In this document: in pieces, positions 20,332-58,950 of the stretch
How positions within the stretch are numbered: the first letter of the stretch is position 1
Layout: every line of letters begins with the position of its first letter
Source: Escherichia phage ECML-10
DNA length: 64,000 bases
Sequence record: OL631479.1
Direction: 5' to 3' (one strand)
Position numbers and translations under genes: made by a program
The notes under the pieces: model-generated
Told to the model about the DNA's origin: nothing
The model's input: only the letters and a program-made list of their open reading frames with translations
Database searches by the model: none

Positions 20332-21009
20332 TTAAAAACTGCGTTTGCGTCTTGGGTGGCGAGGAGGTTGGTTATTTAGACCACTGATAGGTGTAATCCC
20401 CTGGACATCGAACGGTCCGTTGCTGTTTTCATTAAATTTAACCCGAATTCCTTCGTCTACACGAACACCACCAATGATAATCATTCTGCTGTAAGCATCT
20501 AACTCAGAATCTACATAGTCTGGGTGTGCCAGCAGCCAATCAAGAAAATCCTTCCATTGGGCGTAGGAAGATCCACCACGAATCTCTATGGTCTCATCAC
20601 CTATTTTTTCCAGACGGGAAGTTATACTTGCATTACCACTGGACACTTCCTGCATCATCAGCCACCGCACAAGTTGCACAAGAACATTGTACTTAAGCAG
20701 CGGTAGCTTATCAGGATCTGCCGGATAATTTAGTTTCAACTTCTCCATGTCAAGGAATGTTTTAATTACCTCATCAGGGAGAGTTTCCTCATCAACATTG
20801 CCAAGCAATAACCTCATAATATCAATAAGAGGTTGGTCTGGATCAGGTTCCGGAGGCACAGGATCTTCTTTTGGTGGTTCTTCTGGGGTATCGACTACAC
20901 CATCATGGTTAGGCGGTGACGGGATAATCTCTTCATCTTCATACCATGCCATTTGAAAATACCTCGTAAAAATAAAGCCCCATTCCTGATTTGGAAGGGG
21001 CCTTAACAA
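20332..21009 (-). CDS. Hypothetical virion protein
   Basis: 225 aa with Pro/Glu-rich linker (PPEPDPDQP). Confidence 0.3.
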   Translation of the reverse strand: MLRPLPNQEWGFIFTRYFQMAWYEDEEIIPSPPNHDGVVDTPEEPPKEDPVPPEPDPDQPLIDIMRLLLGNVDEETLPDEVIKTFLDMEKLKLNYPADPDKLPLLKYNVLVQLVRWLMMQEVSSGNASITSRLEKIGDETIEIRGGSSYAQWKDFLDWLLAHPDYVDSELDAYSRMIIIGGVRVDEGIRVKFNENSNGPFDVQGITPISGLNNQPPRHPRRKRSF

Positions 21010-21011
21010 AA

Positions 21012-21839
21012 TTATGCCAGTGCAGCCTCAAAATCTTTCATCATATTTTGGAAAGTTTTTGCCTTACTTAAGGTAACACCGTACTCTTTAGCGAAGGTTT
21101 GGAGTGCATCTTTTGAACCACTTTTGTCATCTTCGTTGTTAAGAGCTGCGGCCTGTTTAAGGATTTCATCCTTATTCTCAACGGTTACAAATGAGGAAGA
21201 GGATACAGTCACATCTTGCGGATCTGCTACAGTAACTTCACCGTCACCACCAGGTTCAGTAGGACCTACAGGTGGCTCCGGCTCTGGTTCAGGCGGTGGA
21301 GCTATCGTAGAGACCAGTCCAAGATTTACAACCTGAGAACGTTTCTTAGGCCACTCAATGGTGAAAGTTTGGGTATCTTCTTCATAAACAATGTTGCATT
21401 GCTCATCGTTTATGGTCACTTTTTTAGGCATCCCTACAGGGTCCCATAGATGGCCCTCTGCCACGGAAACTTGGAAAGCCGCATCTACCTCTTTAAACAC
21501 TGACGGGGTGAGTGTGATATTGACATCACCGCTTTGCAGTGTTAAAGTGCTTTCATCAAGGTTCTCTGTGAAGAACAGAAGAATAACACCCATACGAATA
21601 GTTGAGATACCAGTATCAATTGGCAGGCCTGTGTGTTTTGCAATCTTCTCGAAGAAGTCTACAATCGTTCTGCACGGATAGTGAACACTGCCAATAACGA
21701 ATTCTGTTGGTGGCAGCAGGGCTGATAAACCAACATTGATTTCTGGATTGTATTGTGATAAAAATTGATAAAAACTTAACTGATTGTTGAAAACTCTTAA
21801 TAGAGGATCATACTCGACTGGATATACAGCTCTCTTCAC
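21012..21839 (-). CDS. Hypothetical virion protein
   Basis: 275 aa with Pro/Glu-rich linker (PPPEPEPEPPVGPTEPGG). Confidence 0.3.
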   Translation of the reverse strand: MKRAVYPVEYDPLLRVFNNQLSFYQFLSQYNPEINVGLSALLPPTEFVIGSVHYPCRTIVDFFEKIAKHTGLPIDTGISTIRMGVILLFFTENLDESTLTLQSGDVNITLTPSVFKEVDAAFQVSVAEGHLWDPVGMPKKVTINDEQCNIVYEEDTQTFTIEWPKKRSQVVNLGLVSTIAPPPEPEPEPPVGPTEPGGDGEVTVADPQDVTVSSSSFVTVENKDEILKQAAALNNEDDKSGSKDALQTFAKEYGVTLSKAKTFQNMMKDFEAALA

Positions 21840-21924: not shown

Positions 21925-22932
21925 TTATTCACTTTTCAGAGTTACTTTAACAACCAGCTCTGGACGGGTGTTAACTGCCAGCATAGAAGTTTCAGATTCA
22001 ATCTTCTCTTCACGCAGGTATGCAGAGTGTTTATACCACATGTACAGTTCCTGTGCTGGAGTGTTTGCTTCGTTAACATCGTCTGCCGGAGCAAAGTGCA
22101 GCTGGAACATCTGATCAATACCCATCGGCAGAATGCGAGCTTCTTTCTTAGGAATATTGCCAGAGATATCTTCGATAAAGGTGATACCTTTATGCTCAAA
22201 CACACGGTATACGCTGTCTTGACCGCCAGCACCCAGACGGCGACGCAGAGGTTCCTGAGCAGAGCCGTAATAGGTGTATGCCAGTTCTACCAGCGGGTGA
22301 TGAGTAACAGCACTGAAGAACTCCGGTGAGCACAGGGCTACAATGCGATAGCCAGCTGCGTTATCACCAGCTTGCAGTGCGATGTGCAGACGAGCTTCTT
22401 CCAGAACCTCCATAGGATCCTGATCTGCTTTTGCAGGGTCGATCTCAACAGACTTCTGAGACACACCCCACAGAGTGTAGTAATCATACTGGCAGGTAGC
22501 GTCACCAGGTGCATAGGATTTACCCAGAATAGCCTGGAACAGCGCTTTCTCACGCAGTGCTTCATGGGAAACACGGATACGGCGAACAACGCGGGTCACT
22601 ACGTCCTGAACAGTTTTCGGAGCATCAGGGGTGAAGTAACGACGGAAGTTCTGGACATCTGCAGCAGTGATGCCTTTATCCAGAGGGAAGAACGGGATGT
22701 TCAGGTTTTTAACCTGAGCACGTTCATTACCAACGTAGTTACGCTCACCACCACGACGGCGTGCTGGAATGTCGGTTACAACTTCATCAACACGCTCAAT
22801 CTGAGCAATTGTTGAGGTGCCGAGACGAGTTTCGAACAGATCCATACCGGTAATCAGGCGAAATTGACGCGGAACAAGGTCCAGAGTAGCACCTAAATCG
22901 ACAATGCCAAATTCATCTTTACGAGTAATCAT
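21925..22932 (-). CDS. Major capsid protein (lambda gpE-like)
   Basis: 335 aa; follows decoration gene and precedes strong terminator; resemblance to lambda E family from memory. Confidence 0.7.
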   Translation of the reverse strand: MITRKDEFGIVDLGATLDLVPRQFRLITGMDLFETRLGTSTIAQIERVDEVVTDIPARRRGGERNYVGNERAQVKNLNIPFFPLDKGITAADVQNFRRYFTPDAPKTVQDVVTRVVRRIRVSHEALREKALFQAILGKSYAPGDATCQYDYYTLWGVSQKSVEIDPAKADQDPMEVLEEARLHIALQAGDNAAGYRIVALCSPEFFSAVTHHPLVELAYTYYGSAQEPLRRRLGAGGQDSVYRVFEHKGITFIEDISGNIPKKEARILPMGIDQMFQLHFAPADDVNEANTPAQELYMWYKHSAYLREEKIESETSMLAVNTRPELVVKVTLKSE

Positions 22933-26514: not shown

Positions 26515-27321
26515 TTAGATAAAACGCTTGAACATAGAAGGTGATGAGATTGATGGAATCACACAAGGAAGTGCTACCTCCTCTTTCTCCAGGAAATTAA
26601 TCGCAGAAGCTACACAGTCGGCCCAGTCGTCTTTCCTGTTAAATGTTGATCTTTCCCCGTTGAATTTTTCAAGTTCAGTCAGAAATGCTTCCAGAGTATC
26701 AGGATGGAAACTGGATTTTACAATCCTAACCATTCCTTGTTGGGCAAGATTGGCAAAAGGTGAGAACCTTGTCAGTTTAGATTTGTTGGAAGGCATTGGG
26801 TCTTCTTCAACCCTAAACCCTTCGGCGAGCAAGGATCTGGAGGATGTTAAGAACTCACTCTTACCTGCCTGACCAGGGTCCACAGAGAATACGATTATAC
26901 AATCATCACCATCAAACTGCGCCTGTTTCCTGATGATCACATCTCGTTCACCAGCCTTTTTACAGAACTTACCTTCCAGACCTGTGGAATACCTCCCGTC
27001 ATCAACGTTCTCAGGACAATAATCACCGGACAGGTAATAAAAGCCGTCGCTATCCTTACTTACCTTAACACTGGCTGTAAAGTCAGGAAATTTATTACCG
27101 GAAGTTCTCTCGGTTCCTGCCTTATCCCATGCCCTGCAAGATACTGATCCAAGGGGTACTCTATCGGCATCACGAAGGAAAGATCTTTGAAAATAGTTTG
27201 CACCCTCAGGCTTTGCAAACCAGTTGCCATGAAGAAGCTGGGCTTTTTCAAGCTCGGGCAGACCTTCAAGAAAAGCAAGGTATTCTGGGTTGTCTCTTAA
27301 GCAGACAGGATTATCGAATCC
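26515..27321 (-). CDS. terL: Terminase large subunit, C-terminal nuclease part (putative exon 2)
   Basis: Frame open from 27321 to 26515 (269 codons, longer than the 141-aa track ORF); RAWDKAGT and DFTAS motifs typical of terminase nuclease domain. Confidence 0.65.
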   Translation of the reverse strand, partial: GFDNPVCLRDNPEYLAFLEGLPELEKAQLLHGNWFAKPEGANYFQRSFLRDADRVPLGSVSCRAWDKAGTERTSGNKFPDFTASVKVSKDSDGFYYLSGDYCPENVDDGRYSTGLEGKFCKKAGERDVIIRKQAQFDGDDCIIVFSVDPGQAGKSEFLTSSRSLLAEGFRVEEDPMPSNKSKLTRFSPFANLAQQGMVRIVKSSFHPDTLEAFLTELEKFNGERSTFNRKDDWADCVASAINFLEKEEVALPCVIPSISSPSMFKRFI

Positions 27322-28291
27322 TTATATTCAAAGGTGGTCGCAACACCACCTTCCGCACCTTTACGTGCTGCTGCATGTTACCATGCAGAGTAGACTATAT
27401 CACCACCCATTTCAGGGTGCTTCGCTTTTCGAGCGCCATAAGCTTGCGCCCTACTCCCTCTCGGGATAGTCGTTGAACTACATTACCAATCGTAATTGTT
27501 TGAAATATAGGTGTAAGTCTTACGGTCTTTTATTCCTTTAACAACACTAAAACTTACTCCCCACTTCTTAGCTATTTTATTTACACACAAGACCTTATCA
27601 CTAAGATCCTCGCAGATACCTATTATCTTGTGCTCACTTATCCGATTAGAGGTTGGCACTTTTCTAAAGTTAAACTCTTTAGAAATATCTGGGTATACTG
27701 AGCCATTCTTTATACCACTTACAAGTGGTTGATTGACACCAAACATTTCACAAATGTCTTTTACCCTTGCGCCTTGCTCTAACAGCCTACATATTTCAAG
27801 AGCAGTGGCATCATCCAGAGACCTGTATTTATTGACATAGTCCTTTTTAAGTCCCATTTCATGAGCGTGATGTGTGTTTTCCTCAGGCGTTGTCCACTCA
27901 AGGTTCCATGCGGCGTTATTCAACTTATTACCATCTAGGTGGTTTACTTGAGTTTTTACGCTGGGATTGTCATTATCAACAAAAGTCATAGCAATCACTC
28001 TGTGAACGAGCACTTGGAACTTTTTACCGTCCTCGCACAAAGTTACCATAGCATAGCCAGTCTTTTTCTGCACATTAGGATGGAGGAATTTATTAGAATA
28101 CAGACTGTAAATTCTGCCATCGTATGTAGCACAATAATGATTGTAGCCTAAAAAGCCTAAATTTTTCATTTCAAACATCTCCCTACTACAGGTTCGGAAG
28201 GGTAATTATAGCTGCTGATTGTCCGTTTAGCAATCGGATTTCCCAGCAATTAACGAAGTTATTCGACGTGCATTTCTGCACGAAGCCACTA
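27322..28291 (-). other. Intervening sequence in terL, putative group I intron carrying an HNH ORF
   Basis: ~970 bp between the two terminase halves; same-strand HNH ORF; 3' part contains a GATATAGTCT-like element. Boundaries approximate. Confidence 0.45.
27483..28178 (-). CDS. HNH homing endonuclease
   Basis: 231 aa; HNH motif VNHLDGNKLNNAAWNLEWTTPEEN; located inside interrupted terminase gene. Confidence 0.8.
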   Translation of the reverse strand: MFEMKNLGFLGYNHYCATYDGRIYSLYSNKFLHPNVQKKTGYAMVTLCEDGKKFQVLVHRVIAMTFVDNDNPSVKTQVNHLDGNKLNNAAWNLEWTTPEENTHHAHEMGLKKDYVNKYRSLDDATALEICRLLEQGARVKDICEMFGVNQPLVSGIKNGSVYPDISKEFNFRKVPTSNRISEHKIIGICEDLSDKVLCVNKIAKKWGVSFSVVKGIKDRKTYTYISNNYDW

Positions 28292-29041
28292 TCATTTAAT
28301 GGTTGCGCCTATGAACGAGAATGACAACGGTCTTGGCTTGATCTCTACACCCAGTCCGTTAACCGTGGTGTATTTCTCTATCAACTCTTCTTTAGAGTCT
28401 CCCCATATAAATTCACCGTCGCGTCGGATAAAATATCTTTTCTTACCGCATTTCTCCGGATCTGGATACCCTTCATCGTCCAACCACCATCTAACCAGTT
28501 TGGCAAGCATGTGTTCTGAATCGGGGTTACAGCTGATAACCATTCTTGATGGATACTTTGACTGAGATCGCAGACGAGACATCAGATAGTCTATCTGCTC
28601 CCATTCGAACTGCGTGCCCTCATCGAAGCAAACCATGGTGTACTCAAGCCCCTGATGGTTAAGCTTATCTTGTACATACTCCATGTGGCAGTATTTTACA
28701 ACAGCTCCCTTTTTGCTTCTATCCCACTTGCCAGTGCTCGGATCAAACCGTGGAAAAATGAACTTATGATCCTTCTCTCTGAACTTTGGCTTAATGTTTT
28801 CAGGCAGATCACTATAAATAGCTACTGCTTTAGGCCATAGTCCACCCTCACCTTCCAACTGTGGGGTTGTTCTTCGGAACATAACCACAGAGCTGTGGGG
28901 GTCATCAATAATTTTAAGTGGCATCAACTGCAAGAGGAACGACTTGCCAGACCCTGCGGCACCGCCGATTACCAAAATATCTGCATCGTTTTCTAGGATC
29001 ATCTTCTGCTTTTCAGAACACGGTCCGTAAATCTTAGACAT
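28292..29041 (-). CDS. terL: Terminase large subunit, N-terminal ATPase part (putative exon 1)
   Basis: Walker A GGAAGSGKS, Walker B-like VCFDEG; 249 aa. Confidence 0.75.
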   Translation of the reverse strand: MSKIYGPCSEKQKMILENDADILVIGGAAGSGKSFLLQLMPLKIIDDPHSSVVMFRRTTPQLEGEGGLWPKAVAIYSDLPENIKPKFREKDHKFIFPRFDPSTGKWDRSKKGAVVKYCHMEYVQDKLNHQGLEYTMVCFDEGTQFEWEQIDYLMSRLRSQSKYPSRMVISCNPDSEHMLAKLVRWWLDDEGYPDPEKCGKKRYFIRRDGEFIWGDSKEELIEKYTTVNGLGVEIKPRPLSFSFIGATIK

Positions 29042-29328
29042 TAACCTCTCTCCTTTGGAAACAGTGTTCTAATATAGTCTTGCAAAATGATCAATTTAGC
29101 TCTATCATTGCTACAAGACAGATTATTATCCCTCATAATGCCAGAGTTCACTGCATCTGGCGCACCTTTCTTCAAAGGCATAGCTTTAGCAGGTGGTTTC
29201 ATGGCACCTTCTGGGGGTTTAACAATCAACCTTCCTACATCTGGAGGGTCAATCTTGTATTCTTTCTCAACACTGGTTGCACACCCACATAATAACAAGC
29301 ACGCAATAAACAGTGTAGCAACTCTCAT
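29041..29328 (-). CDS. Putative o-spanin (outer-membrane lipoprotein)
   Basis: 95 aa; N-terminal signal with Cys cluster (FIACLLLCGC), Pro-rich mature region; follows i-spanin-like gene with 4-nt overlap. Confidence 0.5.
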   Translation of the reverse strand: MRVATLFIACLLLCGCATSVEKEYKIDPPDVGRLIVKPPEGAMKPPAKAMPLKKGAPDAVNSGIMRDNNLSCSNDRAKLIILQDYIRTLFPKERG

Positions 29329-29723
29329 CGATCCTCCTGATTGATACTCTCATTATAAATATCTATAAGCTGATCAGGAAGTGTTGACTTCTTACCTTCA
29401 GGTGATTGGAGGTAGATAATCTGCTTTTCTCTACCTGCCCTCTCAGCTATATTTAATTTATCCTGCAAATCAGAAAGAGATTTTTCAAGGTTTTTAACCT
29501 CCTCTGCGTGGCCCATTTTAATTTTGTCGGCCTGCTTTTGTTGCTGATCAAGGATCCGTTCCCACTTTAACTCTGTTGCTGACACACCCTCTTGGTAGGC
29601 ATCATTAAGCTTAGAGTTAAACCAATACACGGCCCCAAGATAAGCTGCACCTATAGCCGCTGCAAAAACTAAACCTTTTATGATCCCTTTATACCTACTC
29701 AGCCATGTTAAAACTGAAATCAT
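29325..29723 (-). CDS. Putative i-spanin
   Basis: 132 aa; N-terminal TM helix (GLVFAAAIGAAYLGAVYWF) followed by charged coiled-coil region. Confidence 0.5.
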   Translation of the reverse strand: MISVLTWLSRYKGIIKGLVFAAAIGAAYLGAVYWFNSKLNDAYQEGVSATELKWERILDQQQKQADKIKMGHAEEVKNLEKSLSDLQDKLNIAERAGREKQIIYLQSPEGKKSTLPDQLIDIYNESINQEDR

Positions 29724-29828
29724 TTTAAGGCTCCAGAAACGAAAAAACCCCGCAGCTATGCAGCTAACGGGGCGGGTTAAAATTGAGTAACCTAAATAGA
29801 TCGAAACTAACTAAAAGGAGACTAATAC

Positions 29829-30143: not shown

Positions 30144-30221
30144 GTGGTCTCCACGGAGTGATTCGAACACTCGACCTCCTGATCCCAAATCAGGCGCTCT
30201 ACCAAGCTGAGCTACGCGGAG
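30144..30221 (-). tRNA. tRNA-Pro (anticodon UGG)
   Basis: Hand-folded cloverleaf: 7-bp acceptor, T-loop TTCGAAT, anticodon loop UUUGGGA, encoded CCA. Confidence 0.75.
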
Positions 30222-30232
30222 TATTCATTATT

Positions 30233-30307
30233 TGGTGGCCCTGGGTGGAATTGAACCACCGTCTGGCGATTATGAGTCGCTTGCTTGAACCTTCCAGCTA
30301 CAGGGCC
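30233..30307 (-). tRNA. tRNA-Met (anticodon CAU; could be Ile-lysidine type)
   Basis: Acceptor GGCCCTG/CAGGGCC, T-loop TTCAATT, anticodon loop CUCAUAA, CCA encoded. Confidence 0.7.
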
Positions 30308-30308
30308 A

Positions 30309-30384
30309 TGGTGCTGATGGCAGGACTTGAACCTGCAACCTATTGATTACAAATCAATTGCACTACCAATTGTGCTACATCAGC
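30309..30384 (-). tRNA. tRNA-Thr (anticodon UGU)
   Basis: Acceptor GCTGATG/CATCAGC, D-stem GCAC/GTGC, anticodon loop UUUGUAA, T-loop TTCAAGT, CCA encoded. Confidence 0.7.
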
Positions 30385-30390
30385 AAAAAG

Positions 30391-30488
30391 GTGCTAGGTG
30401 ATGGAATCGAACCACCTATGTATTCAACGACTACCTCGTCTATTTTCAGGATTAAAAATCCTCGCCCTTGCCAAAGGGCTTACCTAGC
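30391..30488 (-). tRNA. Atypical tRNA-like gene (~98 nt), isotype unresolved
   Basis: Perfect 7-bp acceptor and 4-bp D-stem, T-loop TTCGATT; anticodon arm has only 4 bp with loop UUUUUAA (UUU) and a ~30-nt variable region. Confidence 0.4.
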
Positions 30489-30596
30489 TCAGTATGTTGA
30501 CCATGTTGCTAGTCGGCGATGACGACTGTAACATTTGATAATCCGGTTCTGCTTCCGGCTTTCGCTTAATTACAAGGTCAACAATATGGCAGAGGA

Positions 30597-30686
30597 TAAT
30601 GGAATCGAACCATCATCGAGTCATCCTCAACGGGACGGTTTTCAAGACCGCTTGAGCACCATTGCTCCCTACCCTCTTTTATAAAC
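30597..30686 (-). tRNA. tRNA-Ser (anticodon UGA)
   Basis: Type II tRNA with long variable arm; anticodon loop CUUGAAA; T-loop TTCGATT; CCA encoded. Confidence 0.65.
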
Positions 30687-30791
30687 AATACTGATAATGA
30701 CACTGATTTTCGAGCAGTTAGTGACTAGTATAAACGACGATAAATATCAATGCCATTATCTGTATGATTTATGCATTTAAAAATATAAATT

Positions 30792-30879
30792 TGGTGGTGA
30801 GTGATGGAGTCGAACCACCAGAATCGCAATGATAACAGATTTACAGTCTGCCCCGCTACCCCTACGGAATTAACTCACC
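30792..30879 (-). tRNA. tRNA-Tyr (anticodon GUA)
   Basis: Acceptor GGTGAGT/ACTCACC, anticodon loop CUGUAAA, long variable arm, T-loop TTCGACT, CCA encoded. Confidence 0.7.
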
Positions 30880-31009
30880 TAAATACTAATATTTAAATTC
30901 TTTTTAAAATAGCTAGTGTTCTCACCACTAACTATGAGGTATCGGTAAAGTGGTTACCGCCACTTGCCGAAGATTTACTCTGCTAAAGTAAGCTACATTA
31001 AAAAGAACT

Positions 31010-31084
31010 TGGCACCCCGTACTGGACTCGAACCAGTGTCAACGGCTTAGAAGGCCGCTGCTTTATCCACTAAGCTAACAGGGC
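31010..31084 (-). tRNA. tRNA-Arg (anticodon UCU)
   Basis: Acceptor with two G-U pairs, D-stem GCTT/AAGC, anticodon loop CUUCUAA, T-loop TTCGAGT, CCA encoded. Confidence 0.65.
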
Positions 31085-39912: not shown

Positions 39913-40410
39913 ATGAAACTTGATAAAAATGTTCAACGAAAAGCTTTCTTGGATCTTATTGGCTGGGCAGAGGGAACAACAACCCACCCTGCCACCAAAT
40001 GTGGAGGATACGATGTTGTAGCATACGGGATGGACGGAAAACCTGAAATCTTTACAGATTTTTCTACGCACCCTTTTGCAAACGGTCGCCCTGGTAAAGT
40101 GTTTAACTCAAAAGGGCAAAGAACTACAGCCTGCGGTAAATATCAATTTCTTGTCAAATACTGGGAACACTACAAAAAACAGCTTAAGTTGCCGGATTTT
40201 GGACCAGATAGCCAGGATAAGTGGGCAATCCAGTTGATCAGGGAACGTAAAGCACTTGAAGACATAGATAACGGTCATATTAAATCTGCTATACGTAAGA
40301 CCTCAAATATTTGGGCTTCGTTCCCATACAACCAGTACGACCAAAATCCAAAAACCATTGACAAGTTGCTTAAGAAATTTGTAGAGTTTGGAGGTGTTGT
40401 TCTGGATTAA
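39913..40410 (+). CDS. Endolysin, lambda R-like lytic transglycosylase
   Basis: 165 aa; QRKAFLD, EGT, GYDV, GKYQ, SQDKWAIQLIRERKAL, NIWAS align with lambda R as recalled. Confidence 0.85.
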   Translation: MKLDKNVQRKAFLDLIGWAEGTTTHPATKCGGYDVVAYGMDGKPEIFTDFSTHPFANGRPGKVFNSKGQRTTACGKYQFLVKYWEHYKKQLKLPDFGPDSQDKWAIQLIRERKALEDIDNGHIKSAIRKTSNIWASFPYNQYDQNPKTIDKLLKKFVEFGGVVLD

Positions 40411-40464: not shown

Positions 40465-41226
40465 ATGAAGATACATTTCTTTTTTAATGATCACTATCCT
40501 TATTGGTACAAGGATGGTGATCTAATCTTTTGGAAACCTGGCTACAGTAGGAATGGAAATAGGGCTGGACACTACAACAAAAAGACTGGATATTTCCAAG
40601 TGTACAATAAGCTGACAAATGTTAAACGTGGCAGACATAGGGAAATTTTTGACATGTTTTACGGATGTGTCACAGATACTTGGCATATCGATCATATCGT
40701 CTCTAAGAAAAATTCTACTAACGGAGTGCCTGTAGACAAGATAGAAAACCTTCAAATGTTGAAGCCTTGGGATAACTACTGTAAGAGAGCCTTGGAAAAT
40801 GTGCAAAGCAATAACACCTCTACAGTGACTGGTGTGGTATGGCTGAAAAGAGAGGGTAAGTGGAGGGCAAGTAGAAGGATAAATAGGGTAAATGTTAGGT
40901 TGGGAGATTTTGACACTTTCGAAGAGGCTAAGTCTAGGGTTGAATGGTCAATAGCCAACCCGGAAGAGGCTTTAAAGATAGTTCCAAACCCGCACAAGAA
41001 TAATATCCTGCCAGGTATTGATTGGTCTAAGAAAGATACCTGTTGGAGGGCACGAGATAACAAAGGAAGAAACTTAAGATGCTTCAACGACAGGAAGTGG
41101 CTAAATCCGTGGTGGGAGGCAGTTTGTGCAAGAAAGTCTTGGGAAGTAAACTGTCTCTACGGAGGGATGTCACTAACTGAGTGGAAGTTATCCAGAGGCT
41201 ATCCAAGACCTTGTGTTGAGGATTGA
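40465..41226 (+). CDS. HNH homing endonuclease with AP2-like DNA-binding domain (free-standing)
   Basis: HNH motif WHIDHIVSKKNSTNG...NLQML; AP2-like segment GVVWLKREGKWRASRRINRVNVRLGDFDTFEEA. Confidence 0.75.
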   Translation: MKIHFFFNDHYPYWYKDGDLIFWKPGYSRNGNRAGHYNKKTGYFQVYNKLTNVKRGRHREIFDMFYGCVTDTWHIDHIVSKKNSTNGVPVDKIENLQMLKPWDNYCKRALENVQSNNTSTVTGVVWLKREGKWRASRRINRVNVRLGDFDTFEEAKSRVEWSIANPEEALKIVPNPHKNNILPGIDWSKKDTCWRARDNKGRNLRCFNDRKWLNPWWEAVCARKSWEVNCLYGGMSLTEWKLSRGYPRPCVED

Positions 41227-41289: not shown

Positions 41290-41496
41290 ATGAAAGATTT
41301 TCTGTTGGCAATTTTGTTCATGGCGGCATGTCTGGCCTGTGGTGTCGTGTTTGCAGGTGAAACAGCGTATCTTGTCGATGTATATCGTGACAATGGTAAA
41401 CGTATTTGCCTTTATGAGACAAGCCAAGGTGAGCTCTACGAGCTTGTGAAACAAGGTGAGGCAGGTTCCTGCCCTCGCACCAATTTCTTTGAATGA
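41290..41496 (+). CDS. Small signal-peptide protein
   Basis: 68 aa; hydrophobic N-terminus LLAILFMAACLACGVVFA. Confidence 0.35.
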   Translation: MKDFLLAILFMAACLACGVVFAGETAYLVDVYRDNGKRICLYETSQGELYELVKQGEAGSCPRTNFFE

Positions 41497-41505
41497 GGGA
41501 GAACA

Positions 41506-41971
41506 CGTGGAAGACGGACGTTTAATGAAGTCTGAACGAAGGCTTATTGTGCAACTGATCCCAGAAACAGCTTGGTATAATAACCTCCGAAACGCTGTGA
41601 AGAAGAGTGAGTGGGATAAGATCCGCAAGAAGTGCTATAGAGAAGCCAACTACACCTGTGAGGTGTGCGGCGGTAAAGGCAGCAAACACCCAGTGGAGTG
41701 TCATGAACTTTACACTTTCGAAGAGGGAGTGATCCGGCTTGTCGGACTGATAGCACTGTGCCCGGATTGTCACACATCGGTGCATCCTGGGTTAGCAAAT
41801 ATCCGTGGAAAGTATGCTCAGGCAGTTAATCAGTTGGCTAAGGTGAATAAGATCACCAAGAGTATGGCAGAGGCGTATTACCGAGACTGCTTTGCAGAGT
41901 GGCGTGAGCTTAGTAAAGTTCCAGAATGGAAGACTGACTTTTCGTGGATAGAGGGTTACCTTGATGGCTAA
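41506..41971 (+). CDS. Zinc-finger protein, possible HNH-like nuclease
   Basis: GTG 41506 preceded by RBS GAGGGAG; CEVCG...ECHEL...CPDCH pattern. Confidence 0.3.
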
Positions 41972-54560: not shown

Positions 54561-54839
54561 ATGAGCTGCGAAAAATCTTTTTTCATCATCATTTACGGTA
54601 AGGATAACTGCCCACATTGTGTCAGAGCAAAAGAATTTGCAATCAGCAAAGGTCTGCCTTTTGTATATAAGACACTTGGCGAGGGCTACACAAAAGAAGA
54701 GCTTATTGAGAAGTGTAGTCCAATCGTCCCCCGAACGTTGCCGCAGATCTTCTTAGAAAGCGATCTTGACAGTATCCATATAGGCGGTGCCGACGATTTC
54801 ATCTCTTTTGTTAAGAATGGTTTTGGAGAGAAAAAGTGA
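54561..54839 (+). CDS. Glutaredoxin-like protein
   Basis: 92 aa; CPHC redox motif; between nrdB and nrdD. Confidence 0.75.
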   Translation: MSCEKSFFIIIYGKDNCPHCVRAKEFAISKGLPFVYKTLGEGYTKEELIEKCSPIVPRTLPQIFLESDLDSIHIGGADDFISFVKNGFGEKK

Positions 54840-55699
54840 AAGTTGTAAAACGGGACGGTAGAGAAGAGTTCTATAACGGAATTAAGGTGATCAAGGCGGC
54901 AGAGTCCGCCTTATTTGAGTCTGGACATACTGAAGAAGAAGCTTACCGGATCGCCTGCGAGGTTAATGAAGTTGTTGCTAACAATCTACCAACCGACCAG
55001 TGCACGATCTCTGTAAAAAATATCCATATCCTTGTTGAAGACGCTCTTATGGATATGGGTTTAAAATGTGCAGCCAGAGAATACATCCAGTATAGGCAGA
55101 CAAGAGATAATAACAGAGAGGCAGGTGGAAAACTGCTCGCAGATATTAGTGGCTTCTTGGATCGCACTTGTGATGAATTTACAAAAGAAAACGCAAATAA
55201 GCCTACCAATCATGTACACACTCATCGTGACCTGCTTGCAGGCATCCTTAGCAAACACCTTGCATCAACACAGATCCTGCCAGACCGTGTCTCAGAAGAG
55301 CACAATAAAGGCTTCATCCATGTGCATGATCTTGACTACTTGATCAGTCCGTTAACAAACTGTTGTTTGGTAAATTATCCAGATATGTTGGAAAACGGAT
55401 TCAACATTGGTAACGCCCATGTCAGTAAGCCGAAGTCAATAGGGGTTGCAACAACAATCCTTAGCCAAATCTCTAGTGCGGTAGCTAGTGCTCAATATGG
55501 GGGTCAGACTATGAGCCATATTGATCATTATCTGGCACAGTATGCTGAAGCGACCTATGAGAAGAACCTTAAATTTTGCCAGGAACATTGGTTGCCAGAT
55601 GCTGAGACTGTTGCAATGCAAATGACAGATAAAGACGTATTTGACAGTATGCAGACATTACTTTATCAAATCAACACGTTAACCTCTGTCAACGGTTAA
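54836..55699 (+). CDS. nrdD: Anaerobic ribonucleotide reductase NrdD, N-terminal part (putative exon 1)
   Basis: ATP-cone-like N-terminus MKVVKRDGREEFYNGIKV; ORF ends at in-frame stop presumably inside intron. Confidence 0.75.
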   Translation: MKVVKRDGREEFYNGIKVIKAAESALFESGHTEEEAYRIACEVNEVVANNLPTDQCTISVKNIHILVEDALMDMGLKCAAREYIQYRQTRDNNREAGGKLLADISGFLDRTCDEFTKENANKPTNHVHTHRDLLAGILSKHLASTQILPDRVSEEHNKGFIHVHDLDYLISPLTNCCLVNYPDMLENGFNIGNAHVSKPKSIGVATTILSQISSAVASAQYGGQTMSHIDHYLAQYAEATYEKNLKFCQEHWLPDAETVAMQMTDKDVFDSMQTLLYQINTLTSVNG

Positions 55700-56547
55700 C
55701 AAACTGGCCGTTGTAAAACTCTCCTAACCTCATAAGAGGGGTCGGTAAATCCGGCTAACGGGGAACGCTAAGGCGAAAGCTATGCCAATCCCGTGACTAG
55801 TTCTTACAGGAGTTGGAACGGTTGTAACGACTAACGAAAGGCAGAGATGCTTGACAAACATTTCTGAACCAAGTAGTGTAGGGGTTAGTTGAAATACTAA
55901 CTTCGAAATGGAGAGGCTCTATGAAAAAGATCATTCTTAATGGTGAAGAATCAAACTATGTGATTGATGAGGTTGGAAACGTATACGGAAAACGTGGAAT
56001 GCTACACCCAATATTGTGGGGAGGTTATGGAAAAGGTAACAAGCATGTTAAACGCCGTTATATGTACTCTTTCAACCACAAAGGTAAAAAGATTCGAATC
56101 CAAACCTCAAGGATTGTTGCCTTGTATTGTTTGCCGGATGTCCCAGAAGACCCTGAAAACTGGGAAGTGAATCATAAAGATGGCAATACATTGAATGATC
56201 ATCCGTCTAACCTAGAGTGGGTTTTGCCGGAAGATAATAAGAGACATGCTTTCCGAACAGGACTTTGTCCAGGTAAGTGCTATAGGAAAGTGCAGGCATA
56301 CAAAGGGAAAACCTTGGTGGGTGAATATCCTTCACTCTATGCCTGTGCAAAAGCCTTAAATTTGAACGTAGGTAACGTTCATAGGGCTATCGAAGGAAAT
56401 GCCGAAGGTAAGCATCTCACAATAAAGGGTTATTATCTTATTGAAGTAGAGTAAGAGATAGTCTGGCCCTGTGGAAACACAGGGAGGAGACAGCAGACTC
56501 CATTCATCACATTAAGTTTAGGACTGGATACCTCGGTCTTTGGTAGA
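55700..56547 (+). other. Putative group I intron in nrdD carrying an HNH ORF
   Basis: ~850 bp between the two nrdD parts with ~220 nt structured leader before the HNH ORF. Boundaries approximate. Confidence 0.5.
55921..56454 (+). CDS. HNH homing endonuclease (intron-encoded)
   Basis: 177 aa; HNH motif VNHKDGNTLNDHPSNLEWVLPEDN. Confidence 0.8.
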   Translation: MKKIILNGEESNYVIDEVGNVYGKRGMLHPILWGGYGKGNKHVKRRYMYSFNHKGKKIRIQTSRIVALYCLPDVPEDPENWEVNHKDGNTLNDHPSNLEWVLPEDNKRHAFRTGLCPGKCYRKVQAYKGKTLVGEYPSLYACAKALNLNVGNVHRAIEGNAEGKHLTIKGYYLIEVE

Positions 56548-57756
56548 ATGATTACCAAAAACTACTTGAAAGTCCACAAAATGGGTCTTGGTGAAGAACG
56601 TATCACACCTGTGTTCCCTAAAGTGCTGTTCTTCCTAGAAGAGGGTGTCAACATGAACCCTGGAGATCCTAACTATGATTTGAAACGATTAGCTCTGGAA
56701 TGCTCTGCAGAGCGGATTTATCCTGACTTTGTTTCTGTTCCACTAAATCGTAAAGTGACAGGCTCGACAGATGGTAAAGTAACGAGCATGGGTTGCCGGA
56801 GTTTTCTTAGCAAATACAATGACTTGGAAACAGGCGAGGAGAAATACCTTGGTAGATTTAACTTAGGCGTTGTTAGCCTTAACCTGCCAATGATTGCGGC
56901 AAAAGCTAAGACGGAAGGTGTTGATTTCTTTGCCGTTCTTGACGAGTATCTGGATTTGGCATATGAAGCTCACCTTGTAAGGGTTAACCGTCTGAAAGGC
57001 ACCAAAGCAGGGCAGAACCCTATCATGTGGTGTGAAGGCGCTCTTGCTCGCCTGGATCCTGAAGAGAGTATTGATAAACTCTTCTATGACGGGTACGCTT
57101 CCATCAGTATTGGGTATATTGGTGTGTATGAAACCTGTCAGATTTTGGGCAGGGAGGGTGACAAGGCTTTAGCTCTTGGAATACTTCAGCACATGAGAGA
57201 TGCTTGTGAGCGATACAAGAAGGAAAGTAGACTAGCGTTTAGCTTGTACGGCACCCCTTCTGAGAGTCTATGCTATAAAGCTGCAACCTGTCTGGATCGT
57301 GAATATCCTGAAGTGTTGAAGCACGAGCATGAATATCTCACCAACAGTTTCCATCAGCCAGTATGGATCAATAGCTCTCCTTTTGATAAGTGGGAGTATG
57401 AGGAAGGTTTTGCTATGATCTCCTCTGGTGGCAACATCGGATACGTAGAGACACCAAATCTGAAAAACAACTTAGATGCTTTGGAAGCTCTTGTTGATTT
57501 CGGATATAAACACATTATGTATTTTGGTATCAACCAGCCTGTGGATAAATGTCTCAAGTGTGGTTTCTCTGGTGAGTTCAGTGCAACAGCTAAAGGCTTT
57601 GTATGCCCAGAGTGCGGAAACCATGAAGAGGGAACGATCAGCGTAATTCGACGTGTGTCTGGATACCTTTCCAGTCCTAACTCTCGTCCTTACAATAAAG
57701 GTAAGCAAGCGGAAGTTATCGAGCGAGTTAAGCACTACGGAAGTTGTGGTTGCTGA
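56548..57756 (+). CDS. nrdD: Anaerobic ribonucleotide reductase NrdD, C-terminal part (putative exon 2)
   Basis: Glycyl-radical motif RRVSGYLS near C-terminus; Zn-ribbon CLKCG...CPECG. Confidence 0.8.
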   Translation: MITKNYLKVHKMGLGEERITPVFPKVLFFLEEGVNMNPGDPNYDLKRLALECSAERIYPDFVSVPLNRKVTGSTDGKVTSMGCRSFLSKYNDLETGEEKYLGRFNLGVVSLNLPMIAAKAKTEGVDFFAVLDEYLDLAYEAHLVRVNRLKGTKAGQNPIMWCEGALARLDPEESIDKLFYDGYASISIGYIGVYETCQILGREGDKALALGILQHMRDACERYKKESRLAFSLYGTPSESLCYKAATCLDREYPEVLKHEHEYLTNSFHQPVWINSSPFDKWEYEEGFAMISSGGNIGYVETPNLKNNLDALEALVDFGYKHIMYFGINQPVDKCLKCGFSGEFSATAKGFVCPECGNHEEGTISVIRRVSGYLSSPNSRPYNKGKQAEVIERVKHYGSCGC

Positions 57757-57822: not shown

Positions 57823-58950
57823 GTGTCCAGAAAACTTACAACAGATGAGTTTATAAAGAGGGCAAAAGCAGTTCATGGAGATAAGTATGATTACTCTAAG
57901 GTTGAGTATGTAAATGCCTGCACCAAGGTTATAATTATCTGCCCATATCATGGAGAATTTGAACAAGCTACCCACCAACACCTTGCAGGACGAGGCTGCC
58001 GGGAATGTGGAAAGCTAAAAATGGCACAAAGCCACATTATACCACATAAGGAGTGGTTGAATGTTATCCAAGAGGTCAATCCTTATGTCGAAGTGATTGG
58101 AGAAATAATAAGCTGCAGAACAAAAGTGCCGTGCCGCTGCAAAATTTGCAGTCATGAATGGTCAGCAATGCCTTATCTTCTTAAACAAGGACATGGGTGC
58201 CCTAGATGCGGCAAGCTAAAATTCGCACAAAGCAGAGCTATAGCCCATACCGAGTGGGTCGAGGACATAACGAAGAAAAATACATATATTGAAATAGTAG
58301 AAAGGGTTAAAAATAGCGATACACCAGTATTGGCACGATGCAAAATTTGTAGTCATGAATGGTTAGCAAGACCATCCCATCTTAAACGAGGGCATGGGTG
58401 CCCTAGATGTAAAGGCAATGCAAAGAGATCCCATGTGGAATGGGTAGGGCATATAAAGGTTGTCAATCCAAGTATTAAAGTGCTTGGAAAAATTAAAAAC
58501 GGCAGTGCAAAAGTATTATGTAGGTGTAAGATTTGTGATTATGAATGGTCTCCTGCTCCTATTAGGCTCAAGCAAGGACATGGGTGCCCTAGATGTGCTA
58601 ACTACGGCTTTTTATCGTACAATCACGGCAAACTTTACATTATGGTTGATGACTTAGAAGTACCAACACTTATGAAGATCGGTATTAGCGTCAGTGTCGA
58701 AGAGAGAAAAGATAGGATATTGAAAAGTGCCAAAAGGGCAGGGGTAGGTATTTATGATCTCTACCTGGCGAAAACGTGGGAAGGATCAACTCAAAACATG
58801 GCAGATTTAGAAAAATCTGTGCATAAGGCCTTCAGCAAGTATAAAATAAACTTCCCTGTAAAATTTGATGGTAGCACAGAATTCTTCTACTACAGGCCTG
58901 AAGTGTTTGACACGGTGGAAGAAGTATACAGGAAGATTTGTGGTAAATGA
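57823..58950 (+). CDS. Zinc-finger repeat protein with C-terminal GIY-YIG/T5orf172-like domain (putative nuclease)
   Basis: Four ~60-aa repeats (C-x-C-K-I-C...HEW...GHGCPRC) also visible as nucleotide repeats; C-terminal KLYIMVDD...MKIGIS; GTG start. Confidence 0.35.
   Translation: MSRKLTTDEFIKRAKAVHGDKYDYSKVEYVNACTKVIIICPYHGEFEQATHQHLAGRGCRECGKLKMAQSHIIPHKEWLNVIQEVNPYVEVIGEIISCRTKVPCRCKICSHEWSAMPYLLKQGHGCPRCGKLKFAQSRAIAHTEWVEDITKKNTYIEIVERVKNSDTPVLARCKICSHEWLARPSHLKRGHGCPRCKGNAKRSHVEWVGHIKVVNPSIKVLGKIKNGSAKVLCRCKICDYEWSPAPIRLKQGHGCPRCANYGFLSYNHGKLYIMVDDLEVPTLMKIGISVSVEERKDRILKSAKRAGVGIYDLYLAKTWEGSTQNMADLEKSVHKAFSKYKINFPVKFDGSTEFFYYRPEVFDTVEEVYRKICGK

Follow-up and report, generated by a model that had tools for sequence, protein, structure and literature searches.

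The described systems closest to a pair of adjoining minus-strand genes in Escherichia phage ECML-10 (OL631479.1) are the two-component spanins of phages lambda and T4 and those of the rV5-like phages. The 64,000 nucleotides (nt) of ECML-10 that were analysed are called the window below, and the two genes, which directly precede the gene of the large terminase subunit (TerL), very probably encode an inner-membrane spanin subunit (i-spanin) together with an outer-membrane spanin subunit (o-spanin). In lambda, Rz spans the inner membrane in type II orientation and has a periplasmic domain that is helical, and Rz1 is a small proline-rich outer-membrane lipoprotein; the two are presumed to fuse the membranes after degradation of the wall. 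The ECML-10 pair is like Rz/Rz1 in this architecture and in the presumed mechanism. In lambda, however, the Rz1 gene is embedded in Rz, the holin, endolysin and spanin genes form one cassette, and Cys residues are present in both proteins. In T4, PseT.3 and PseT.2 are likewise separated, the i-spanin is free of Cys, periplasmic Cys is carried by the o-spanin, and the spanin, holin and endolysin genes all lie apart, which resembles the dispersed layout of the window (Kongari 2018, PMC6139136). The T4 system differs in that PseT.2 needs two Cys residues where the o-spanin described here has one, in that the T4 pair is not adjacent to the terminase, and in that the T4 holin is known. The spanins of T-even phages score as essential in HIDEN-SEQ, as does the corresponding pair of phage Bas54 (10.1101/2025.11.20.689424).

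Spanin genes beside the large terminase gene have been described before. In rV5, PVP-SE1 and CB7 the pair adjoins the large terminase and stands outside a lysis cassette (Buttimer 2020). SP6/K1-5 and Vibrio phage VP4 share this position, SP6 and VP4 having been cited as further terminase-side pairs (Buttimer 2020, citing Summer 2007), but they are set apart by their descriptions as podoviruses, that is, another morphotype, and by other spanin families in the Kongari tables (PMC6139136). The rv5 i-spanin and o-spanin families were both catalogued under the separated architecture (Kongari 2018, PMC6139136, Tables 3 and 4), a class in which overlaps of 4-nt size are included; the "rv5" o-spanin family comprises seven phages, and the i-spanin group is given as (rv5, 2_JES-2013, FV3) (Kongari 2018, PMC6139136).

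When the 3-kb stretch around the ECML-10 pair was compared with phage genomes, 730 phage records were matched, and the best relatives included Escherichia phage rV5 (NC_011041, Vequintavirus; 98.2% identity, 96% coverage). By this comparison, the window belongs to an rV5-like (Vequintavirus) E. coli myophage that is ∼98% identical to rV5. The same two genes, 96–99% identical, are gp068/gp067 in rV5, bas54_0001/bas54_0002 in Bas54 and gp66/gp65 in LL12. The overlap of 4 nt and the place between the tRNA cluster and TerL are the same in the Vequintavirus orthologues, which are distinguished by few substitutions only.

The two spanin genes

A first-pass annotation of the window had proposed two minus-strand open reading frames (ORFs) as a spanin-like pair. 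Both ORFs are present as it had delimited them (Table 1), and its i-spanin/o-spanin reading is upheld. We assign the two genes, with high confidence, to a two-component spanin of the separated architecture, because family matches, topology and lipobox tests, synteny within the Vequintavirinae, existing annotation and the catalogue of Kongari 2018 all point to it.

The 132-amino-acid (aa) i-spanin matched phrog_4297 "Rz-like spanin" over its full length in the PHROG search (E 6.7e-49), and it is identical to the rV5 protein at 127 of 132 positions and to the Bas54 protein at 128 of 132. Hydropathy analysis gave one hydrophobic segment only, at residues 14–35 (Kyte-Doolittle 19-residue maximum 1.93), and this transmembrane (TM) segment has Lys/Arg residues on its N-terminal side (positions 10, 12 and 16). 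These basic residues fit an N-in, C-out (type II) topology, which we infer for the protein. In the AlphaFold model (single-sequence, mean pLDDT 74.5) a helix of residues 12–105, inside which the TM segment falls, is followed by a loop (106–114) and a second helix (115–127). The i-spanin contains no Cys, and its C-terminal DIYNES block is invariant in the Seunavirus homologues at 27–29% identity.

The o-spanin precursor matched phrog_1267 "Rz-like spanin" in the PHROG search (E 1.7e-22) and shares 94 of its 95 residues with rV5 and 93 with Bas54. Its N-terminus, MRVATLFIACLLLCGC, forms a hydrophobic signal with Cys10, Cys14 and Cys16. The stretch LFIACLLLCGC fits PROSITE PS51257 at Cys16, with Arg2 in the n-region, and Cys10 (FIAC) falls outside the PS51257 pattern. 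When seven o-spanin homologues were aligned (one from the window, two from IMG/VR contigs and four from Seunavirus phages), Gly15-Cys16 was invariant at identities down to 37%, and the four-residue lipoboxes were LCGC, LSGC, ISGC, LVGC, VSGC and LIGC. The first-pass annotation had named FIAC or LCGC as a non-canonical lipobox; judged by the pattern and the alignment, LCGC at Cys16 is canonical and FIAC does not fit, so that this claim has to be withdrawn. The prediction of lipobox and TM segments that it had proposed as a check thus gave a PS51257 lipoprotein signal at Cys16 and a single TM segment in the i-spanin.

The same annotation had described a small Pro-rich protein with a Cys-containing signal region, and this description holds. 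The mature o-spanin begins with C-A-T-S, has no Asp at +2 and contains 9 Pro in 80 aa, and the invariant Pro residues of the seven-homologue alignment include P38, P39, P46 and P51. The homologues also keep a C-terminal NDRxKLxxLQxY block. Cys72, which is periplasmic, is the sole further Cys of the mature protein. Since the sole hydrophobic segment of the 95-aa protein is N-terminal and a C-terminal TM domain (TMD) is absent, the protein is not a unimolecular spanin of the T1 gp11 type.

At least one periplasmic Cys is present in about 96% of spanin pairs, and ∼4% are without one (Kongari 2018, PMC6139136). In the Seunavirus pairs of 4MG, PVP-SE1, EC152 and NINP13076, neither subunit has a periplasmic Cys, and one i-spanin has a Cys inside the TMD; these pairs therefore fall among the ∼4% of two-component spanins that lack a disulfide link.

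The existing annotation of related phages agrees with the spanin reading. In the RefSeq record of rV5, rv5_gp068 and rv5_gp067, which are flanked by the tRNA cluster and the large terminase gene, are both named "Rz-like spanin"; in other records the names are i-/o-spanin, or "putative spanin inner membrane subunit" for the one and "outer lipoprotein subunit" for the other. By tblastn, the o-spanin was found in 145 phage records, mostly Vequintaviruses at 93–100% identity, the rest being Seunaviruses at 38–42% identity, such as 4MG and PVP-SE1; this search of a phage collection was used instead of a locus search in viral contigs, which returned 5 related loci only. Neither spanin had a Pfam match at E <= 0.01, the Pfam Rz and Rz1 models included, or an NCBIfam match. 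As judged from these searches, the pair would work like Rz/Rz1, yet it belongs outside those Pfam sequence families.

Table 1. Positions of the spanin genes, their membrane signals and other features in the ECML-10 window.
Feature	Position	Strand	Description
i-spanin gene	29325–29723	-	132 aa; homologue of rV5 gp068 and Bas54 bas54_0001
i-spanin TM segment	29619–29684	-	residues 14–35, IIKGLVFAAAIGAAYLGAVYWF; single, N-terminal; translation verified
o-spanin gene	29041–29328	-	precursor of 95 aa, mature lipoprotein of 80 aa; homologous to rV5 gp067 and Bas54 bas54_0002
o-spanin lipobox L13-C14-G15-C16	29281–29292	-	Cys16 predicted to be lipidated, Ala17 at +2; translation verified
TerL, first part (aa 1–233)	28298–29041	-	tblastn with intact 4MG TerL; phrog_9526/979; Pfam Terminase_6N
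TerL, second part (aa 234–499)	26515–27318	-	tblastn, 73% identity to 4MG TerL residues 234–499; phrog_9453/979
Terminator-like GC-rich hairpin with T-run	29740–29780	-	from the terminator scan; 16 nt separate its end from the i-spanin start codon
Endolysin, lambda R-type lytic transglycosylase homologue (rV5 gp085)	39913–40410	+	phrog_90, E 3e-51
68-aa small membrane/secreted protein (rV5 gp086)	41290–41496	+	match to phrog_4641 (unknown function) only

The pair stands beside the terminase, as had been noted at first pass, with TerL starting at 29041. The genes of the i-spanin and the o-spanin overlap by 4 nt (ATGA), the stop codon of the o-spanin gene overlaps the start codon of TerL (TAATG), and a Shine-Dalgarno sequence is present for each gene. 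Translational coupling links the two genes with each other and with TerL, so that they would be expressed late, at the head of the packaging/structural operon. In the mechanism proposed here, the i-spanin would be anchored in the inner membrane by its one N-terminal helix and would project into the periplasm with a domain that is mostly helical, and the o-spanin precursor would be cut at LCG/C by signal peptidase II and lipidated on Cys16. The Lol avoidance rule, which concerns Asp at +2, is established knowledge on lipoprotein sorting; with Ala and not Asp at this position, the o-spanin would be sorted to the outer membrane. The C-terminal blocks DIYNES (i-spanin) and NDRxKLxxLQxY (o-spanin) are the likely contact between the subunits, by analogy with lambda. 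The complex would bridge the periplasm through the peptidoglycan mesh, and once the wall had been degraded by the endolysin, the freed complexes would fuse the inner and outer membranes as the last step of lysis. A function in outer-membrane disruption is accordingly a prediction, and the orthologues in Bas54 tolerate no transposon insertions.

Transposon data and rival readings

Transposon insertions in Bas54 (MaxBurger, MZ501093), a phage that is 97–98% identical to the window phage and belongs to the annotated E. coli phage collection BASEL, have been mapped in a HIDEN-SEQ preprint (10.1101/2025.11.20.689424). No insertion was found at the 29 TA sites of the i-spanin gene bas54_0001, at the 19 sites of the o-spanin gene bas54_0002 or at the 24 sites of the endolysin gene bas54_0202, and 1 of 78 sites was hit in TerL; all four genes are scored as essential. 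In the T-even phage Bas37, the mean counts were 2.2 for the o-spanin, 0.0 for the i-spanin and in the hundreds for the flanking genes (10.1101/2025.11.20.689424). Such near-zero counts next to these neighbours indicate that HIDEN-SEQ does register spanins as needed.

The pair might instead be an envelope module of another role, for instance a lipoprotein for superinfection exclusion or receptor blocking (like T5 Llp and Cor) and a membrane partner. Such a module would be favoured by the generic envelope character of a lipoprotein and a type II membrane protein, by the distance of the pair from the endolysin and by the lack of a Pfam Rz/Rz1 match. Exclusion lipoproteins, however, are usually early or moron genes and dispensable, whereas the ECML-10 pair is coupled to TerL in a late operon and its Bas54 counterpart tolerates no insertions. 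Given also that the ordered i-then-o pair is kept in two genera and that the spanin-family E-values are 1e-22 to 1e-49, another envelope role appears quite improbable. More improbable still is a reading in which the small terminase subunit, otherwise missing, would be the 132-aa ORF, with no relation to the lipoprotein ORF. The slot directly upstream of TerL is the usual one for the small subunit, none is annotated around TerL in the rV5 or Bas54 records, and the 132-aa gene is essential in Bas54; but the 132-aa protein has a strong N-terminal TM segment, the lipoprotein gene intervenes before TerL, and the PHROG search gave a full-length i-spanin match and no terminase-family match. On the TMD and the family match, the i-spanin was rejected as a small terminase subunit. 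The chance that both ORFs are accidental frames or decayed genes is negligible: nothing was found in favour of it, and it is already refuted by conservation, with Shine-Dalgarno sequences on both ORFs, 93–100% identity across over 100 phage genomes, and homologues of another genus that can still be recognised at 27–40% identity and keep the motifs.

Several points weigh against the two-component spanin nonetheless. The assignment rests on PHROG and on curated spanin families, which are themselves defined by architecture, and no report of a complementation test, lipid labelling or a lysis-arrest phenotype was found for this spanin family. Because the pair heads the terminase operon, the zero insertions in Bas54 could be due to polarity on TerL and not to a need for the spanin. 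The periplasmic Cys72 is not kept in the Seunavirus homologues, which have Gly or Ala instead. Finally, the heptad periodicity of the i-spanin was not above that of shuffled sequences in a crude test, 1223 of 2000 shuffles reaching the observed value. The TM-plus-coiled-coil protein of the first-pass annotation is hence retained as to its TM segment (residues 14–35); for the periplasmic domain, the model supports a long helix, and a coiled coil is not demonstrated.

Surroundings of the spanin pair

The gene order in Vequintavirus is tRNAs, i-spanin, o-spanin, TerL and portal. Four Seunavirus genomes retain the order i-spanin, o-spanin, TerL and next structural gene, and their tRNA genes lie slightly upstream. 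In the window, the hairpin upstream of the i-spanin gene (Table 1) closes the preceding tRNA/gp069 unit, and no sigma-70-like promoter was found by the promoter scan between this hairpin and the i-spanin start codon.

The TerL gene is interrupted, with aa 1–233 at 29041–28298 and aa 234–499 at 27318–26521. The ∼980 nt between its two parts bear an ORF for an HNH homing endonuclease (27483–28178). In the rV5 record TerL is annotated as three joined pieces; in Bas54 it is in two pieces, and neither the place of the interruption nor the interrupting HNH gene is that of the window. A second split gene, nrdD (anaerobic ribonucleotide reductase), was seen on the plus strand, its halves lying at 54836–55699 (phrog_487 positions 4–293) and 56548–57756 (positions 312–714) with an HNH endonuclease ORF (55921–56454) between them. 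A search with Rfam at the gathering threshold returned only tRNAs, and no group I intron in the interruptions of TerL or nrdD. A large endonuclease ORF (57823–58950, plus strand) stands in place of rV5 gp109–gp111, and at least five homing-endonuclease-like genes are present in the 64-kb window.

A cluster of seven tRNAs was located at 30145–31084 on the minus strand (Pro, Met, Thr, Ser, Tyr, Arg and one odd call). The odd tRNA (30390–30488) is 99 nt long, with a four-base anticodon according to ARAGORN and only 35.5 bits in Rfam; it may contain an intron or be degenerate. In CarlMeissner, a 97-nt tRNA-Lys is annotated at an apparently equivalent position, as judged without an alignment.

Among the relatives of the window, ∼19 GenBank records (MG0656xx) are named "Campylobacter phage", with Campylobacter jejuni as host, and are 97–99% identical to it; in the endolysin region, these records are the closest matches of all (99.4%). 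At such identities the Campylobacter host label looks doubtful, or the records look as if they came from mixed samples.

Endolysin and holin candidates

The endolysin gene lies on the strand opposite to the spanin pair, starting at 39913, where the first-pass annotation had placed it at ∼10 kb; the distance is 10.2 kb. Its product also matched the lambda lysozyme structure PDB 1AM7 (E 6.5e-35). A hydropathy scan of the endolysin gave no hydrophobic segment at the N-terminus, and a soluble endolysin of this kind needs something for its passage across the inner membrane. The first-pass annotation had seen no two-TM holin-like gene adjacent to the endolysin or the spanins, and this can be extended to the whole window, since an all-ORF hydropathy scan found no small two-TM ORF on the coding strand. 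Its view that lysis functions are dispersed and that no holin is identified agrees with published statements on rV5-like phages, in which both points are made, and two further papers on related phages concur as to the holin.

Three free-standing small membrane ORFs were found on the coding strand of the window, namely the two spanins and a 68-aa ORF just downstream of the endolysin (Table 1), a single-TM ORF that the first-pass annotation had left out. It has one very hydrophobic segment at residues 4–22 (Kyte-Doolittle 19-residue maximum 2.74) and a 45-aa acidic/basic C-terminal part with two Cys. From its sequence, the hydrophobic N-terminus of 19–20 residues may act as a signal anchor, or it may be a signal peptide, for which VFA/G is a possible cleavage site; Cys14 alone suits PS51257, and it falls one residue before the position range of the rule. 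The family is nearly confined to Vequintavirus. In the rV5 record the homologue gp086 is labelled "contains transmembrane domain", and in rV5 and CarlMeissner it lies directly 3' of the endolysin. In the window an HNH endonuclease gene (40465–41226, plus strand, 253 aa) sits between the two, an arrangement common to 19 of 120 related records (>=80% covered), and a second HNH ORF follows downstream (41456–41971).

The 68-aa ORF had no holin-family match in PHROG, Pfam or NCBIfam. Its homologue in Bas54, bas54_0201, was hit at 7 of 8 TA sites and is non-essential (10.1101/2025.11.20.689424). The ORF is therefore unlikely to be the sole holin, and as such it was downgraded; a redundant or regulatory role is still compatible with these data. 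It could be a weak candidate for a holin or lysis regulator, or an exclusion protein.

Outside the window, holin candidates were sought by combining membrane-protein scans of the whole rV5 genome and of Bas54 with the Bas54 essentiality calls. The rV5 scan returned gp086, gp124, gp178, gp029, gp031, gp185 and others. The genome-wide search for a holin suggested at first pass thus yielded small membrane proteins, but PHROGs and Pfam assigned none of the scanned candidates to a holin family. Three of the Bas54 counterparts are non-essential: bas54_0164 (gp124-like), a 78-aa protein with two TMDs and a charged tail, at ∼0.8 kb past the right end of the window; bas54_0115 (gp178-like), named "putative holin" in the Bas54 record (BASEL) and hit at 27 of 28 TA sites; and bas54_0065 (gp002-like), a SleB-like hydrolase with a signal-like N-terminus. 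Three others are essential. Of these, bas54_0037 (gp031-like; 104 aa, an N-terminal TMD and a helical domain) and bas54_0039 (gp029-like; 88 aa, phrog_1322 "membrane protein") belong to an essential tail-fibre cluster, and bas54_0110 (gp185-like; 117 aa, an N-terminal TMD) is an early gene. In rV5, small membrane-type proteins with homologues that are essential in Bas54 are encoded between tail-fibre genes at 20937–21203 and 22348–22662. The T4 holin gene t also follows tail-fibre genes, which makes the gp029-like and gp031-like proteins reasonable leads, not findings; their essentiality within the tail-fibre cluster could possibly be due to polarity. We tentatively consider, at somewhat less than even confidence, that the phage has a holin of an unrecognised family, with the gp029-, gp031- and gp185-like proteins, all encoded outside the window, as candidates, or else redundant holins. 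This reading follows from the dispensability of the gp086, gp124 and gp178 homologues in Bas54, in which the endolysin and both spanins are essential.

Every element of the first-pass heading, a spanin-like pair beside the terminase, far from the endolysin and without an identified holin, is already in print, and the pair is therefore real, ordinary and already known. As a catalogued textbook example of a separated spanin, whose position at the head of the operon has also been published, it has little significance beyond correct annotation. What is sharpened by the analysis is the holin gap of these phages: the scan and the transposon data together remove the obvious candidates, the ORF beside the endolysin in the window among them, and point to a few small membrane proteins that are essential and encoded in other parts of the genome.

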